Origin: an uncultured Bacilli bacterium
GTDB taxonomy: Bacteria; Bacillota_I; Bacilli_A; RF39; UBA660
Direction: 5' to 3'
Assembly: GCA_947630415.1 (NCBI GenBank)
Contig: CANRHM010000003.1
Span: 1 to 32,905, forward strand
Length of the DNA: 32,905 bases
The translations under genes were made by a program, and so were the position numbers. This document shows positions 4,165 to 28,287 of this stretch, piece after piece. The stretch's first letter is position 1, and every line of letters starts with the position of its first letter. Under the pieces are notes generated by a model, which saw only the letters and a list, made by a program, of their open reading frames with translations, searched no databases and was not told the DNA's origin.

Positions 4165-5678
4165 AATTCGATTCCTCCTTTAGGAAGAAGAGCTTTATCC
4201 ATTTCTTCTCTTATAATTGGTGCTTGGCTTAAAGTAGTTGCATCTTTCTCTTTAATTTTGGTAACAAGACTATTAATTTCTCTATCGTATCGTTTTGATA
4301 TATAAATGGCTTGATCAAAGATTTCTCCCGCTGGTGCAAAGGTAAGAATAACAAGGGAATCATTTCCTGCTTTCGTATAACAGCAAGCCATATTAGAAGA
4401 TCTTACCACGTACATATCATAATCAGTTTTTAGTTTCTTTTGTACTTTCGTATGTCTATTAGACATTTCAGGATCTTCTATACCTCTTTCCAAGCGATCC
4501 ATTAATAATTGAATTCGTTTCTTTTCACTAGCATTAAAATGAGTTAAATCGAAACAAGGACTATTCTTATCTAGTAAGAAGAAAATCTTAGATGCGGTAG
4601 GATGCGCCTCTTCCTGTTTACTAGCATTGTATTCATCAACAGAGTCTTTGACTTCATGGAGAAGACCTTCCGTCTCATCTAAATAAAGACTAGCTTCTTC
4701 ATAAACATCTTGATTTTGCGTTTCATTAGCAAAGACCGTTTGAAGTTCCTCTTTATACATTGATAACTCAAGTAATTGTACCATCAAGCGTTCTTCGACA
4801 TAAGAGAAACTAGAAGTATCAATTTCTCCCGTATCATCAGTCATCTTCATCTCTTTTTCACATGCAGCTAAGTTTTTTGCTAATTCTATTTCTTTTTCGC
4901 TTTTTCCTTGGTAAAGATAACTATATTGACTAAGGTAATCATTAATTTCCTTACTTAAAGCAGTATACCTTTCCCGAAGTGGTGCAAATAAATCTTGCTT
5001 TGGTTCTTCAGTAGGTACTACTTCTTCATGAGGGACCTCCACGATAACAGGAGCAGGAACCTCTTGAGATTCCATCACTGTAATAGGTTCTACCTCTACT
5101 TTTTTTGGTTCTACAGCCTGAACCACCGGTTCAACTGTTTTAGTTTTTGATGATTCAGGAGATGTTTTTTTCTTATGATTTGCTTTTACACAACTATCCC
5201 AAGCTTCTTTAGTTAAAACTGCAAGTTGATCTTCCTCTTCTAAACCACTTTGATCCAAAAGCGTTAAAAAATAATCAAAATCGTATTGTTCACGTCTTAG
5301 AACAGCACCAACTTTTTCTAATTCAGCTTCAACTCTATGAACCTGATCTTCTCCCTTACTTTCCAATACTACTCTTTTCTTAAAATAGTCATTTTTGGTA
5401 ATGGAATCAAGAGCCATTTGTACTTGTTCTGCATCCATGGCATCATGTGCTAAAAAGAAATCAATCACCCGAATGGAATTATCCAAATTGGGATCTAGTA
5501 AAAGAAGTCCTTCTCTGGCCTTTAAAACATTTTGGGCAGTTGGTGCATCTTCTAGTACCGTCATTTGTGAAAGTTTTCTTAACCGATCATTTAGTTGTGC
5601 TTTTTCTTGTTCTAGTTTTTTCCCTACACCTTGAACATAGGAATCAAACTTATTAATTGAAGTTACCTCTACTTGCAT
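4161..5678 (-). CDS. Hypothetical 505-aa coiled-coil protein with Pro/Glu/Val linker and possible C-terminal RelE/ParE-like fold
   Basis: Long ORF, GGGGTGA RBS, own promoter; low-complexity linker at aa ~170-228; C-terminal helix plus three short strands (MYVVR, ACCYTK, SLVILTF). Confidence 0.8.
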   Translation of the reverse strand: MQVEVTSINKFDSYVQGVGKKLEQEKAQLNDRLRKLSQMTVLEDAPTAQNVLKAREGLLLLDPNLDNSIRVIDFFLAHDAMDAEQVQMALDSITKNDYFKKRVVLESKGEDQVHRVEAELEKVGAVLRREQYDFDYFLTLLDQSGLEEEDQLAVLTKEAWDSCVKANHKKKTSPESSKTKTVEPVVQAVEPKKVEVEPITVMESQEVPAPVIVEVPHEEVVPTEEPKQDLFAPLRERYTALSKEINDYLSQYSYLYQGKSEKEIELAKNLAACEKEMKMTDDTGEIDTSSFSYVEERLMVQLLELSMYKEELQTVFANETQNQDVYEEASLYLDETEGLLHEVKDSVDEYNASKQEEAHPTASKIFFLLDKNSPCFDLTHFNASEKKRIQLLMDRLERGIEDPEMSNRHTKVQKKLKTDYDMYVVRSSNMACCYTKAGNDSLVILTFAPAGEIFDQAIYISKRYDREINSLVTKIKEKDATTLSQAPIIREEMDKALLPKGGIEL

Positions 5679-11853: not shown

Positions 11854-12309
11854 GTGATGCAAATGAAAAAAATAATCACATTCCTACTTATAATCTTACT
11901 CTTAACAGGTTGTCAAAATAAAGATCAAGTTCGCTGGGAAAAAGAGATAAAAAATCTACAAGAAACCGCTATCCAAGATAGTTCTAAAAAAATTTATCAA
12001 GAAGACATAACCGAAGCGATTACTTATTTAAAACAACATATTCTTAATCCCATAAACAATAGAGAGGTAGCCAAAAAGATCATTTATTATAGTACTTATT
12101 TAACAGAACTAGGTAATAAAAAAGAAGAAAACAAAGATCACATCATAACAAAAGTAAGTAGTCAAATACAAGACTATATCACATCTCTTTACAAAGAAAA
12201 AACAACCAACAAGAATGCCTTAATTCTATCAAAGGGAAATGTACTAGTTAGTGAATTACTCCAAATAAAAGAGGAAGACATCTCTTCCTTCATAACAGAA
12301 AACGGATAA
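11854..12309 (+). CDS. Putative lipoprotein
   Basis: MKKIITFLLIILLLTGC lipobox; true start may be ATG 11863. Confidence 0.75.
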   Translation: MMQMKKIITFLLIILLLTGCQNKDQVRWEKEIKNLQETAIQDSSKKIYQEDITEAITYLKQHILNPINNREVAKKIIYYSTYLTELGNKKEENKDHIITKVSSQIQDYITSLYKEKTTNKNALILSKGNVLVSELLQIKEEDISSFITENG

Positions 12310-12329
12310 TACAAAACATTATCCGTTTT
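12299..12329. terminator. 12-bp perfect hairpin between convergent genes (bidirectional terminator; possibly also a DGR target hairpin)
   Basis: AAAACGGATAAT(12299-12310)-7 nt loop-ATTATCCGTTTT(12318-12329). Confidence 0.65.
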
Positions 12330-12348
12330 ATTATGTTTAATGAGAAGT

Positions 12349-14118
12349 CTATATTTCTGCATTGACTAGTACAAGGCGGAACGAGTAGGTGGCGTACGCA
12401 GAGCCAAAGGTGTAGTAGTAGTAGAACACTCCAGCACTCGAGCTATGGAGATAGTAGCCGCCGCGGATGAACCACGGGGTCGTAGAGCTTACAAAACTAT
12501 AGGTATTACTATACCATCCTTTGGTTTCTGATAAAGCATGTCCATAACATTCACCATTCTGTGTACATGAGGTAGCAAAGTTAGTTGTATATAAATCATA
12601 ATACTTGGCATCTGGTATTAGATTAGTTTCTCCACTTGTCTTAAATCCGGAACTTTTTATTGTTGGTTTACCTGTAGCATCATCTTTTAGTGCACCCATT
12701 ACATATTCAAGTGCCCCACCACTCATATCATATACTCCTGTGATGTTTCCAGTCGTAGATGCTTTTTGTCCTGCTTCAGTATTATATGTATTTGCACAAC
12801 CAGAATCTTCACTTGCATTTGCTGTTGCTCCTGCTATTCCTGTTGTATAACTTGAACAGTTATTGATATATACTTCTTCCCCGTCATTTCCATATTTTCC
12901 ATACTCACTTTGTGATAGGTAGGCTACTGCTCCCCACTCACTATTCTTACTCATATGGGTATCGATACTTCCATCACTACTAAATCCATATTCAGTAGTA
13001 TTCTTGGCCATATTTTGTGATATTGTGAATGCTGTTGAAACTCGGATTCCTCTCCATGAGGTTACACTTGGCTTTATTTGTGGCGTTAATGTGGTTAAAT
13101 CACATCTGGTATTAACATCACCACTAGTTGATGGTGTACAGTTCTGTTCTTTATTACTAGTTTCAAATTTTCCATACCAGAATCCTTCTAATTGTTCTCC
13201 TCCAAAATCAAAGGCTGGATGTACTATATAATTGTCTTCATCTGCTAAAGTTAGATCTTTACTTATAAATTTTATTTTTATTTCTCCTGGATTTAAATAT
13301 TTTGGAGAAGAGGAACTTCCACTATTTGTTCCTCCTGCTGTTTTTATATCTACATAATCATATTCGTATCTCGGTATCCATACCCACATCGTATTGATAT
13401 CTTCTATATCTATTTTTTCTCCTACTTCTGCTTCTACATAATCACTTCTTTGTTGTGTTCCTGTTTCTTTTACTGTTACTGCATTTGCCCATTCTTGATT
13501 ACAATAATTATACCAACTCTTATCATTATTTGTACTATCTGCTTTGACCCATGAACTTTTGCCTTGATCCCATTTTACTGGAATCATTCCCTCTACTAAT
13601 TTTGGCACATTTGGTTGAGGCATATCTTCACATGATAATGCTTCATAAGTTCCTGTTATTTTTGTTTCACCTTCATTTAAAGCTAATTCTTTATTACTTA
13701 ATCCACATCTTCCATTTAAAGTTACGGTTTCAGAACTTGTTCCATTATTCTTTAATTTTAAAGTATAAGTTAACGTTGTTCCTGTGGCTAAATTTTGTAA
13801 TTCTATTTCACTTTCATTGCTACTTGCCGATAATACTTCGATGTTATTACTTCCACTATAGGTGATTATAGAATGAATATCTACTAAACTTTGATTCGTA
13901 AAAGTGACAGTTATCTCTTTTTCTTCTCCTCCTTGTAAAGTTACTTGATTGTTTTCTAAGTCGTTACTTTGAATGGGGCAAGAGACATCGCCTACGATAA
14001 TATTAAGTGCTCCTTTCTTTTCTGTACTTGTGGTAAATAATGCATAACTAAAACCGATGATCCCTGTAATCATTAATAACATTACAAAACTAAGCATCAT
14101 CTTAGTTCTATCTTTCAT
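12349..14118 (-). CDS. Secreted/surface protein with SipW/TasA-type signal peptide and C-terminal CLec (FGE-sulfatase-like) domain; putative DGR target
   Basis: N-terminus ...GIIGFSYA|LFT...NIIVGDV; CLec-fold motifs GVYDMSGGALEYV, PWFIRGG and terminal SFRLVL. Confidence 0.8.
   Translation of the reverse strand: MKDRTKMMLSFVMLLMITGIIGFSYALFTTSTEKKGALNIIVGDVSCPIQSNDLENNQVTLQGGEEKEITVTFTNQSLVDIHSIITYSGSNNIEVLSASSNESEIELQNLATGTTLTYTLKLKNNGTSSETVTLNGRCGLSNKELALNEGETKITGTYEALSCEDMPQPNVPKLVEGMIPVKWDQGKSSWVKADSTNNDKSWYNYCNQEWANAVTVKETGTQQRSDYVEAEVGEKIDIEDINTMWVWIPRYEYDYVDIKTAGGTNSGSSSSPKYLNPGEIKIKFISKDLTLADEDNYIVHPAFDFGGEQLEGFWYGKFETSNKEQNCTPSTSGDVNTRCDLTTLTPQIKPSVTSWRGIRVSTAFTISQNMAKNTTEYGFSSDGSIDTHMSKNSEWGAVAYLSQSEYGKYGNDGEEVYINNCSSYTTGIAGATANASEDSGCANTYNTEAGQKASTTGNITGVYDMSGGALEYVMGALKDDATGKPTIKSSGFKTSGETNLIPDAKYYDLYTTNFATSCTQNGECYGHALSETKGWYSNTYSFVSSTTPWFIRGGYYLHSSSAGVFYYYYTFGSAYATYSFRLVLVNAEI
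12367..12495 (-). other. Putative DGR variable region (VR)
   Basis: 67/120 G+C over 12371-12490 (hand count) in an AT-rich gene; non-scaffold codons nearly all NNC/NNT; ends TCGTTCCGCCTTGTA (SFRLV). Confidence 0.75.
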
Positions 14119-14146
14119 TCAAATCACATCCTTATTATCTATTTCT

Positions 14147-14174
14147 ATTATAAAACTACCCCCCCCCATGTCAA
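14147..14174 (-). promoter_or_regulatory. Consensus sigma-A promoter with G9 homopolymer in the spacer (putative phase-variable promoter)
   Basis: Minus strand TTGACA(14174-14169)-T-GGGGGGGGG-TAGTTT-TATAAT(14152-14147); 16-nt spacer. Confidence 0.85.
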
Positions 14175-14196
14175 CTTTTTGTTAATTTCTTCTCAT

Positions 14197-14218
14197 AAAA
14201 AAAGAGGAGTATTCCTCT
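14197..14218 (-). terminator. Intrinsic terminator after the ftsEX-M23 operon
   Basis: Minus strand AGAGGA-ATAC-TCCTCT then a T-run, at the M23 gene stop. Confidence 0.65.
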
Positions 14219-26176: not shown

Positions 26177-27187
26177 TTAACTCTCTTTTTTTTGTACTTT
26201 TTTACTAATATCTTTTAATGTTTCTAAATACGCTTTTTCCACAGGACTAATTTCTTTTACTTGATACTTTTTATATTCACTTTTTGCTTTTTGTATTGCT
26301 TCTTCATGGCTTATAGCACCAGCGCCTATTAATTTACTTTCCCCTGTTGCAGATAAAATAGAATCTAGTTCTCTTATATAATCTTCCATATACATTTGTT
26401 TATGCCTAATTGCTTGAATTTCAGCAAAATCAAAATATCCTGATACCAAATTATTTAAAACTTTTAATTCTTCTTCTGTTAAATAATTTTTAGCAATAAC
26501 TACATCACTCATAACAGGAATATCCCCTCTGAAGGTTTTAAGTCCCATAAACGGTTTTTCGGAATCTGCTCTTTCATAAATTAATTCGGAGGCAGTATGA
26601 CCATGAGTAGCAAAATGAAGTTTATTTTGGACCATTTTAAAAAACTCAATCGACTTTTCATCTTTAGGATCATAATCAACTGCTGTTGCATATAAATCTA
26701 AAACTTGTCGATAAAGAACTTTTTCAGAAGATCGGATATCCTTTATTCTAGCAAGTAATTCTTTCCAATAATTGCCACCAGCATTGCCTTTAAGACGTTC
26801 ATCATCTAATGTGAATCCTTTTATCATATATTCTTTTAATCTTTCAGTAGCCCACTTTCTAAAATTAGTAGCTATTTTAGATTTAATACGATATCCTAAA
26901 GAAATGATCATATCTAAATTATAATATTTGACCTTTCTTTCTACATTTCTACTTCCTTCGCTTTGAACTGTCAAGAATTCCTTGACAGTTGAATTTTCAT
27001 CTAATTCTTGCTCATTAAATATATTTTTTATATGTAAACTTATATTTTGTTTGGTTGTTTTATATAATTCAGCCATTTGCTGTTGAGATAACCAAACAGT
27101 TTCATTCTCTAGTTTTACATCGATTTTAGTCTCTCCATCCTCTGATTGATAAATAATAATATTGTTAGAAATTTCATTATTATACAT
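26177..27187 (-). CDS. RhuM-family protein
   Basis: ETVWLSQQQMAELY, YNLDMIISLGYR, FRKWAT..LKEYMIKGF.LDDERL, IRSSEK, AKNYL motifs. Confidence 0.9.
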   Translation of the reverse strand: MYNNEISNNIIIYQSEDGETKIDVKLENETVWLSQQQMAELYKTTKQNISLHIKNIFNEQELDENSTVKEFLTVQSEGSRNVERKVKYYNLDMIISLGYRIKSKIATNFRKWATERLKEYMIKGFTLDDERLKGNAGGNYWKELLARIKDIRSSEKVLYRQVLDLYATAVDYDPKDEKSIEFFKMVQNKLHFATHGHTASELIYERADSEKPFMGLKTFRGDIPVMSDVVIAKNYLTEEELKVLNNLVSGYFDFAEIQAIRHKQMYMEDYIRELDSILSATGESKLIGAGAISHEEAIQKAKSEYKKYQVKEISPVEKAYLETLKDISKKVQKKES

Positions 27188-27262
27188 ATATACATCTCCT
27201 TAAATTGAACAAAATAATTTATTAAAATAATCATACAAAATAAATGTTTTTTCCTTTACATA

Positions 27263-28287
27263 CTATTTGTTTTCTATTTGCTTTGTTTCACTTAATAATC
27301 TATCAAAATCGGATACATAGTTTCTATCTTGTATAACTTTATATTTTTCATATTCAATTTCTGCTTTTTCTACTGCTTGTTTATGAGAAACTGTTCCTTT
27401 TCCTTCTAATACATCATAATGAAAAACTTTTATTGCATTTTCAACTTCTTTTTTCCAATCATCCATATACATTGCAATATTTCTTTCGGCATTATTTTCG
27501 GCTATATCTAAAAATAAATTTACTAAATTATTCAAATTTTTAATTTCTTTTTCATCTAAATAATTTTTGGCAATAGTAATATCTGATTAAGTATCTTCCC
27601 ATCAGGTGATTTATCCCAATTGGTAAGACCCATATTTTCTTTTGTAGAATCAACTCTATTATAAACTATTTCCGCAGCTGTATATCCAGTTATAGCGTAA
27701 TGAAATTTATTTTGAATCGTTTTATAAAATTCCATTGCTATTTCACTATTTTTATCATAATCTATTGAACATTCTGCAAAAATATCTGTAACTTTTTGAT
27801 AAAACATTCTTTCACTTGTACGAATTAATTTAATTCTTTCAAGTAATTTTTGAAAATATTCTTGATCTTTTTTATTGGCTTTCATGAACCTTTCGTCATT
27901 TAAAGCAAATCACTGAACCATATAATCCTTAATAATTTTATTTGCCCAAGTTCTAAATTTAATTGCTTTTTTAGAATTAACTCTAAATCCTATGGAAATA
28001 ATCATATCAAGATTATAATACGGATAAACTCTTTTAACTTTACGAGTTCCTTCATTTTGAACTTGTGCAATTTTTGCACAAGTTGAATTTTCATTTAATT
28101 CTTCATCTTTATAAATATTATTAATATGTCTAATAATACCGCTTCTATCGATGCTAAATAAATTTGCTAAAGCTTCCGTATTTAACCAAACATCTTCATT
28201 TTGAAGTAATACCTCTACTTTAGTATTTCCTTCCTCATCAATATAAAATAAAATATTTCTTTCATTTCCAATTAATTTATCTTTCAC
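27263..28287 (-). pseudogene. RhuM-family pseudogene (nonsense codon plus 1-nt frameshift)
   Basis: Three track ORFs form one RhuM: in-frame TGA at 27912-27910 where the paralog has Gly (KGF), and CTT AA TCA GAT at ~27590 where one extra A restores KILKSDITIAKNYL. Confidence 0.85.

Follow-up and report, generated by a model that had tools for sequence, protein, structure and literature searches.

A gene end in an uncultured gut Bacilli bacterium as the probable variable region of a remote target of a cellular diversity-generating retroelement

Background

The question considered here is whether the end of one gene in an uncultured Bacilli bacterium has been written by a diversity-generating retroelement (DGR) located elsewhere in the genome. 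The gene, designated P0001, encodes a protein of 589 amino acids and lies in a stretch of 32,905 nucleotides (contig CANRHM010000003.1 of GenBank assembly GCA_947630415.1; GTDB lineage RF39, UBA660), which at its full length is referred to as the window. A preliminary description, made from the letters of the sequence and the translations of its open reading frames (ORFs), had taken the GC-rich end of this gene for the variable region (VR) of a DGR target with a C-type lectin (CLec) fold and had expected the template repeat (TR) and the reverse transcriptase (RT) to lie outside the window. The analysis described here leads to the view that positions 12376-12477 (minus strand) are very probably the VR of a remote target, served in trans by a cellular DGR with its cassette on contig C130 of the same assembly.

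The window is contig C3 of that assembly (G000), a metagenome bin of 1,281,657 bases in 140 contigs with 32.4% GC, a completeness of 90.85% and a contamination of 0.59%. The features on which the argument is built are given below.

12349..14118, minus strand: target gene P0001, 589 amino acids (ORF and translation, AlphaFold2 model, Foldseek against PDB)
12368..12488, minus strand: full stretch homologous to the TR (blastn against C130:181-301, ungapped over 121 nt, 24 mismatches)
12376..12477, minus strand: VR core, 34 codons from PWF to SFR, corresponding to TR C130:192-293

Results and discussion

The GC-rich gene end and its template

The C-terminal end of the gene product reads ...TTPWFIRGGYYLHSSSAGVFYYYYTFGSAYATYSFRLVLVNAEI*, and the codons quoted for it in the preliminary description are identical to those of the ORF at 12349..14118; its figure for the GC content of 12371-12490 was recomputed with the same result (67/120). 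Over the whole window, stretches of 120 nt have a mean GC content of 0.311 (sd 0.056), with a peak of 0.567 at 12369-12488 that is the sole stretch at or above 0.55. Genome-wide, 0.1% of the 120-nt stretches reach this value; segments of this kind occur on 25 contigs, and in 17 of the 25 the segment lies at a TR-like place. On the basis of these statistics for the window and the genome, the GC-rich tail is a genuine feature at the stated position, well outside what chance would give.

A DNA search with the gene tail as the query gave many matches within the assembly. The adenine-mismatched partner repeat near an RT gene, for which the preliminary description had suggested a search, is present at C130:181-301 (core 192-293). 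The template that had been predicted from the gene tail, PWF.RGGN.NN..NAGVFN.NNNNGNANNN.SFR, is almost exactly the actual TR, PWFIRGGNYNNSSNAGVFNFNNNNGNANSNNSFR. Within the 102-nt core, the VR differs from the TR at 17 of the 30 TR adenines and at 3 of the 72 other bases (Fisher p 8.9e-9); 85% of the core mismatches are located at adenines, and this bias is the cleanest among the 19 complete TR-like VRs of the assembly. All 13 Asn codons of the TR (AAC or AAT) are changed in the VR, AAC to TAC, CTC or ACC and AAT to CAT, AGT, TTT or TCT, and each carries the TR's own third base. Amino acid differences from the TR are seen at 15 core codons, and 17 core codons of the TR, plus one AAC just upstream, have an adenine at position 1 or 2; the earlier estimate of 15-18 variable codons agrees well with these counts.

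The silent sites give an indication of the order of events. Third codon positions of the VR core agree with the TR in 33 of 34 cases, and residues identical to those of the TR are encoded by the identical codon in 18 of 19, as against an agreement of 71% at the third positions between the gene and its nearest paralog (on contig C37). The VR was thus copied from the TR after the gene had split from that paralog. An explanation in which no retroelement acts at the locus, and in which protein constraint on the CLec scaffold is combined with ordinary gene conversion between paralogs, has in its favour the large size of the family (29 matches to the C-terminal domain), the conserved scaffold residues and the plausibility in principle of conversion between paralogs. 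It is nevertheless considered very improbable: at silent sites the VR resembles the non-coding TR more closely than it does any paralog, the differences are concentrated on the TR adenines in the proportion given above, and the retention of the TR third base, C or T, by every Asn codon excludes protein constraint as the cause. The pattern from TR to VR is what mutagenic retrohoming predicts.

By reference to established DGR biology, the TR RNA would be reverse-transcribed by a complex of RT and Avd with random misincorporation opposite adenines, and the resulting cDNA would replace the homologous C-terminal segment of the target gene. Up to approximately 18 codons on the ligand-binding face of the CLec-fold domain would be rewritten in this manner, with the scaffold codons staying exact copies of the TR.

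The spectrum of the substitutions varies between the VRs. At 12376-12477, A-to-T changes account for 10 of the 17 adenine substitutions, and this VR has seven Tyr codons (TAC) as a result; A-to-G changes predominate in other VRs of the genome (for example 18/20 on C100 and 17/23 on C7).

The cassette on contig C130

Contig C130 (3,139 nt) carries, in this order, the end of an adjacent target gene, a GC-rich hairpin, the TR, a gene for a MutS-like protein (MSL), avd and the RT gene. Its first 50 nt are the end of the adjacent target gene (...GSFRLVLAP*), and its TR is non-coding and Asn-rich, translating as NPWFIRGGNYNNSSNAGVFNFNNNNGNANSNNSFRLVLAP. The MSL protein (156 aa) contains MutS domain I (Pfam PF01624, MutS_I, 33.7 bits with a cut-off of 20.6, E 4.7e-8). 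Avd (136 aa) is recognised by NCBIfam DivGenRetAVD NF033474 (80.3 bits, cut-off 80) and by Pfam bAvd PF22296 (72.9 bits, cut-off 40), and gave 0 matches against PDB. The RT (353 aa), located 1 kb downstream of the TR, matches RVT_1 with 64.9 bits (cut-off 29.6) in libraries that contain no curated DGR-RT model. It contains IGNYTSQYF and YMDD; an SQ motif is a mark of DGR RTs. Its best relative in PDB is 8ub7_A (328 aa, E 2e-47), named only 'Reverse transcriptase' by the depositors, which we take to be the Bordetella phage bRT; group II intron RTs in PDB are matched at E 2e-12, 35 orders of magnitude more weakly. Pfam detected no HRDC domain in those cassette ORFs that were scanned.

RVT_1 matches in the assembly are confined to C62 and C130, and the sole TR-like match on the window contig is the VR itself, in keeping with the earlier remark that neither an RT nor a template copy is present in the window. 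The RT on C62 (558-1865) is a group II intron maturase (TIGR04416, 429 bits, cut-off 300) unrelated to DGRs; C130 therefore carries the sole DGR-type RT of the assembly. The designation of the VR as an orphan served in trans is accordingly appropriate for the window and not for the genome, where it is one of 19 TR-like VRs. The database records of the relatives of the C130 RT bear the names 'uncultured Bacilli', 'Tenericutes', 'Acholeplasma sp. CAG:878' and 'Candidatus Fimihabitans', organisms which presumably belong to the order RF39. No paper on a DGR in RF39 was found in a literature search.

A tandem array of templates was observed in a related metagenome-assembled genome (MAG; locus L047, 5-3282), where a unit of 367 nt is repeated 8.8 times upstream of MSL-avd-RT. 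These correspond to nine tandem TR units, each with a distinct non-coding TR-like sequence, which differ chiefly at the Asn or variable positions; two other loci, L037 (5 hits) and L030 (3 hits), resemble this array.

The family of target genes

Complete TR-like partners of the TR number 19 in the assembly by blastn, to which the partial VR adjacent to the TR is added. Each of the 19 is located at the 3' end of an ORF; 6 of these ORFs are complete, and the other 13 are truncated at contig ends. Mismatches to the C130 TR at adenines and at other bases are 17 and 3 in the window VR, followed by 17/5, 18/6, 19/6 and 20/6 and extending down to 20/36; about five VRs have at least 75% of their mismatches at adenines when compared with this single TR. 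Groups of VRs have non-adenine differences in common, which hints at other templates, either past or unassembled.

Matches to the C-terminal domain were counted in the present assembly (29) and in its relatives G001 (43), G011 (43), G004 (20) and G003 (14). The domain was found in 12 of the 41 genomes searched, all of them in the same family, where it is present in 11 of the 24 other members covered; the RT was found in 11 of the 41. Pieces of the gene family account for 49 kb or more, which is at least 3.8% of the assembly length. A closed relative of 1.3 Mb has 8 dispersed paralogs in addition to its TR. In a large protein collection, 7,847 of the 8,000 candidates scored match at E <=1e-10, and none of the 120 protein matches listed has a name; no near-identical ortholog was found in this collection, the best non-self match being the C37 paralog (69%).

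Comparison with a sister genome and the linkage of the cassette

The same TR locus is found in a sister genome, G001 (L117, G001:C2:54000-62000, approximately 4700-5130), with 92-93% identity to C130:19-521, and there it is embedded in a chromosomal contig of 77 kb, with a target gene on one side and yabP/yqfD on the other. Physical linkage of C130 to the window is inferred from this chromosomal position in G001. The locus in G001 retains the adjacent target, the hairpin, the TR and a spacer of approximately 210 nt, which is followed directly by yabP/yqfD; homology to C130 ends at position 521, and MSL-avd-RT is absent from it. A search of the 93%-complete G001 assembly with the C130 RT as the query found no DGR RT.

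At the locus of P0001 itself, the PcsB-like neighbour protein of G001 is 98% identical and the flanking DNA and genes show 81-95% nucleotide identity per 100-nt bin. The syntenic family gene, which is truncated by a contig end, shows 43-76%, falling to 20% in the final bin, which abuts that end. The VR of this G001 gene is richer in AT (GC 0.47 vs 0.57) and has non-adenine differences at 28 of 72 positions from the G000 TR and at 27 of 71 from the TR of G001 itself. The comparison, which covers two genomes only, fits an RT-dependent refreshing of the VRs.

Architecture, fold and predicted export of the protein

The AlphaFold2 model of P0001, built from an alignment of 103 sequences, has a pLDDT of 87.3 and a pTM of 0.77, and the protein is laid out as an N-terminal helix, an immunoglobulin (Ig)-like domain, a middle region and a CLec/FGE-like domain ending in the VR.

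14029..14118, minus strand: residues 1-30, hydrophobic helix followed by GFSYALFT (helix at residues 2-22 in the model)
13714..14028, minus strand: residues 31-135, Ig-like beta-sandwich (Pfam ASH and beta strands of the model)
12361..13251, minus strand: CLec/FGE-sulfatase-like domain, residues ~290-586, boundaries approximate (Pfam and Foldseek)

The CLec fold, which had been claimed from the sequence, is supported by Foldseek searches against PDB, where the best match is the DGR variable protein TaqVP (5vf4, E 5.3e-9, probability 1.0), followed by Mtd variants (1yu3 and others) and, further down, by FGE (1y1h). By sequence, Pfam FGE-sulfatase is matched below threshold over residues 391-498 (E 0.013), and the family profile gave 0 matches against PDB at E <=1. 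The VR stops 8 codons short of the stop codon. Column entropy among the 103 homologs averages 3.47 bits for the 13 positions of TR Asn codons, as against 1.62 bits for the remaining 21 positions of the VR and 1.45 bits for residues 160-547.

The N-terminal domain matches Pfam ASH with 29.5-34.5 bits (cut-off 27); CBM_56 (25.7-27.3 bits, cut-off 27) passes only when the first 160 residues are scanned alone. Membership of this domain in the TasA/camelysin group was considered; it lacks support from Pfam, where Peptidase_M73 was not found in P0001, and it is kept only as a lead. The TasA fibre appears in Foldseek as a weak match (probability 0.96, TM 0.13/0.27).

Residues 1-30 are a putative signal peptide or membrane anchor, though none of the NCBIfam signal-peptide models matched P0001 at E <=0.1, and the protein may be exported and displayed as a variable binding protein. 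The case for secretion consists of the hydrophobic helix and of an N-terminal motif of the FSYAF type, which recurs in small proteins flanking a SipW-type peptidase on contig C1 (L118, G000:C1:798-4280), and tblastn detects similarity between these small proteins and the N-terminal part of the family. The peptidase matches TIGR02228 with 96-98 bits (cut-off 51.85) and the SipW equivalog with 76.9, under its cut-off of 190. Export by this SipW-type route is regarded as a lead.

The 3' end of the variable region and its present activity

In the DGRs treated by Wu et al. 2018 (PMC5758913), in the part of that work concerned with the 3' side of the repeats, TR and VR share 20-40 nt of GC-rich sequence. 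The corresponding features of the window are as follows.

12374..12385, minus strand: GC-rich stretch of 12 nt, C TCG TTC CGC CT, in which VR and TR do not differ, on the 3' side of the last variable adenine
12349..12373, minus strand: AT-rich tail codons ..VLVNAEI and stop, without homology to the 3' end of the TR
12300..12330, no strand assigned: AT-rich hairpin between two convergent genes (sequence and fold of the downstream region)

The first of these is the sole candidate for a remnant of a 3' anchor of the initiation of mutagenic homing (IMH) type, and the hairpin at 12300..12330 is most simply a two-way terminator. GC-rich hairpins follow the VRs of C130 (C130:52-86), C109 and C7, approximately 50 nt past the stop codon, with a stem that varies compensatorily (GCGCCCACCCC/GGGGTGGGCGC vs GCGCTCGTCCT/AGGACGAGCGC) and without a following T-run.

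Several observations weigh against the assignment of the window VR to the C130 element, or against its present use. Three core differences do not fall on adenines (GGG>GGA, TTC>TAC and the second base of AGC>GCC), and the 11-nt 5' extension adds one adenine and one non-adenine difference; with respect to the rule of 'under four' non-adenine differences given for TR-VR pairs in the relevant portion of Yan et al. 2019 (PMC6642488), the core has three and the core with its extension four. The TR and the RT are in the same bin as the window, yet on a contig of 3.1 kb. At the 3' side, identity to the TR extends over 12 nt, compared with 29 nt in the adjacent target (C130:1-50), and the positions that follow match the TR at 7 of 17; the AT-rich tail at 12349..12373 lacks homology to the TR 3' end and to the ..GGAGCGTA(A/G) ending that is common to most other VRs, and no GC-rich hairpin was found in a fold of the 140 nt downstream of the window VR. 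Population data are thin. The reads available, as assembled contigs only, come from 4 runs of one rabbit gut metagenome sample in one study, possibly the source of the window's own assembly, each run containing 0.10-0.17 of the sampled words; at 80% likeness they gave short pieces, intermingled with paralogs, at a depth of 2-6 over 12388-12555. A piece of 115 nt lying over the VR has 22 differences and unaligned flanks, and is for these reasons unassignable to the window gene.

The non-adenine differences bear on the possibility that the VR is served by another template copy, outside the assembly, and not by the TR of C130. Two of the three in the core (239 G>A and 277 G>C) are common to the VR on C19, and at least nine of the other VRs have non-adenine differences in common with one another; in G004 there are two RT cassettes, one relative has nine tandem TR units, and the assembly, 91% complete, is spread over 140 contigs. 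Yet the C130 TR already explains 69 of the 72 non-adenine positions, and no second TR was found in the assembly by blastn with a word size of 7, so that a separate template is considered improbable here.

The features of the 3' side relate to a different possibility, that of a fossil VR which was written by the DGR in the past and has become a fixed sequence after decay of its 3' recognition sequence. The short 3' identity, the AT-rich tail and the lack of a downstream GC-rich hairpin would be expected of such a relic, and the RT module is dispensable in the lineage, being missing at the TR locus of G001, where the syntenic VR is decayed. Against this, the silent sites are nearly undecayed (33 of 34 third positions, in a genome of 32% GC and with the paralog at 71%), which indicates that the last rewriting of the window VR was recent. 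In addition, most of the other remote TR-like VRs likewise cease to follow the TR after TTCCGCCT, at the same point as the window VR, and a short 3' anchor may for this reason be normal for the remote targets of the element. We regard a fossil state as a serious but less favoured possibility, at somewhat over one chance in three. The assignment to the C130 element as a trans-served VR is retained; in view of the short anchor, the chances that the window VR can still be rewritten today are roughly even.

Poly-G tracts in the promoters of the family

Upstream of P0001, the following features were recognised.

14147..14174, minus strand: promoter-like site TTGACA-T-G9-TAGTTT-TATAAT with a 16-nt spacer and the G run at 14159-14167 (from the sequence)
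14135..14205, minus strand: leader and promoter block common to the gene family (26 matches in G000 with 85-100% identity)

The block also matches many copies in G001 with 88-98% identity. In the present assembly, 23 promoter-like sites with G8, G9 or G10 were counted, and almost all members of the family are preceded by one; the spacer measures 14 nt in 1 site, 15 nt in 4, 16 nt in 17 and 17 nt in 1. Of all its G/C runs of at least 8 nt, 24 of 28 lie in this promoter context, with about one expected from composition, and 3 of the remaining 4 lie in variants of it. G001 has 21 sites with G6-G10 and spacers of 14 nt (1), 16 nt (18) and 17 nt (2). When the strict promoter pattern was searched in five relatives, 4 sites were found in G001 and 0 in the four others; the pattern undercounts, because the -35 hexamer varies (TTGACA, TTGACG and TTGACC among 20 G001 sites fetched). 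A G9 variant of the promoter was also observed at C1:4680-4688, near the locus of the SipW-type peptidase.

The poly-G tract between -35 and -10 is a candidate switch for phase variation by slipped-strand mispairing. One contig of run X1 has a 1-nt deletion at 14159, where the depth sums many paralogous promoters; since a single spacer length dominates and the population data are thin, phase variation is put forward as a hypothesis. In Mycoplasma hyorhinis, the vlp genes are reportedly subject to phase variation through poly-A tracts in their promoters. A phase-variable promoter with a poly-A tract is also reported for Neisseria nspA (PMC6389960). The present promoters resemble such systems in the homopolymer within the promoter spacer of a multigene family of surface proteins and in the differences of length from copy to copy; they differ in that 17 of 23 copies (G000) and 18 of 21 (G001) have the single 16-nt spacer, and in that differences of length are seen between copies only. 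A literature search found no report of a DGR combined with such a homopolymer promoter.

Other features of the window

At 26177-28287 (minus strand), an intact gene of the RhuM family (336 aa) precedes three short ORFs. These correspond in turn to positions 180-250, 67-158 and 1-58 of the same Pfam profile and look like a second gene copy in fragments. An Rfam scan of the window and the C130 locus gave 0 families at the gathering score.

Comparison with known systems

The Bordetella phage BPP-1 element resembles the present one in its adenine-specific TR-VR differences, in a C-terminal CLec-fold VR with a GC-rich end and in its Avd; its target protein Mtd is among the Foldseek matches of the window protein. 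The present element differs in being cellular and not phage-borne, in its remote target and in the presence of an MSL gene. BPP-1 has a long IMH and an adjacent GC hairpin, which are not evident at the window VR. Identity of the C130 RT to phage RTs in a phage collection is at most 41%. TaqVP of Thermus aquaticus (5vf4), to which the model is structurally closest in PDB (TM 0.45, with normalisation by the target), has 15% sequence identity; the window protein has in addition an Ig-like domain at its N-terminus and an extensive middle region.

The DGR of Treponema denticola (TvpA-type) is likewise a single cassette with several dispersed chromosomal genes ending in CLec-fold VRs. Its accessory gene is an HRDC gene, according to the entries on this element in Wu et al. 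2018 (PMC5758913), whereas MSL and Avd are found here, together with 19 TR-like VRs and 29 domain matches. The same work, in its account of architectures, places the MSL-type DGRs in an 'Architecture D' with 16 examples, one of them in Legionella. The present cassette agrees with that account in its small protein of MutS domain I, avd and RT with the TR upstream; it differs in its host, a gut Bacilli lineage of ~1.3 Mb, and in a far larger number of TR-like targets. In the portions of these sources that deal with target numbers, the maxima are eight targets in tandem and seven that are non-adjacent (Wu et al. 2018, PMC5758913) and up to 6 targets per MAG (a MAG survey of 2024, PMC11661182). 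A high copy number alone is not unprecedented, since Yan 2019 (PMC6642488) describes, in its section on atypical TRs, dozens of 'VR' copies with mostly non-adenine changes. In cyanobacterial DGRs, as far as the relevant part of PMC7517822 describes them, targets have been duplicated within the genome into dispersed CLec paralogs, some still homologous to the TR, and the present family is similar in both respects. The cyanobacterial proteins have kinase or protease N-terminal domains and occur in large genomes, whereas putatively exported Ig-plus-CLec proteins are found here in a genome of 1.28 Mb, at least 3.8% of whose assembly the family makes up.

The kind of element, an MSL-type cellular DGR with remote CLec targets, is thus known, and its scale is unusual. 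The member described here is new and belongs to uncultured gut Bacilli; its relatives may already stand in the tables of published surveys.

Conclusion

A DGR target could be recognised from raw sequence alone, with its template predicted almost residue for residue, and a DGR that appears to be in working order, with many remote targets, is placed in uncultured gut Bacilli with small genomes. It is possible, if rather doubtful at present, that the system provides antigenic or adhesive variation throughout the lineage, with one MSL-Avd-RT module rewriting the CLec tips of dozens of surface-protein paralogs dispersed over the genome, each gene switched independently by the poly-G tract of its promoter, and with arrays of TRs in some relatives; this interpretation takes in the 19 TR-like VRs of the present genome, up to 43 paralogs in relatives and arrays of up to 9 TR units. 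If true, variation would be stacked in two layers, one determining which genes are on and the other what each of their products binds. The commitment of at least 3.8% of a 1.28-Mb genome to the family argues that variable surface recognition is central to the life of these organisms, in parallel with proposals made for other small-genome lineages with DGRs. The poly-G promoters and the multi-TR arrays provide testable leads on how one retroelement may be shared among many genes.

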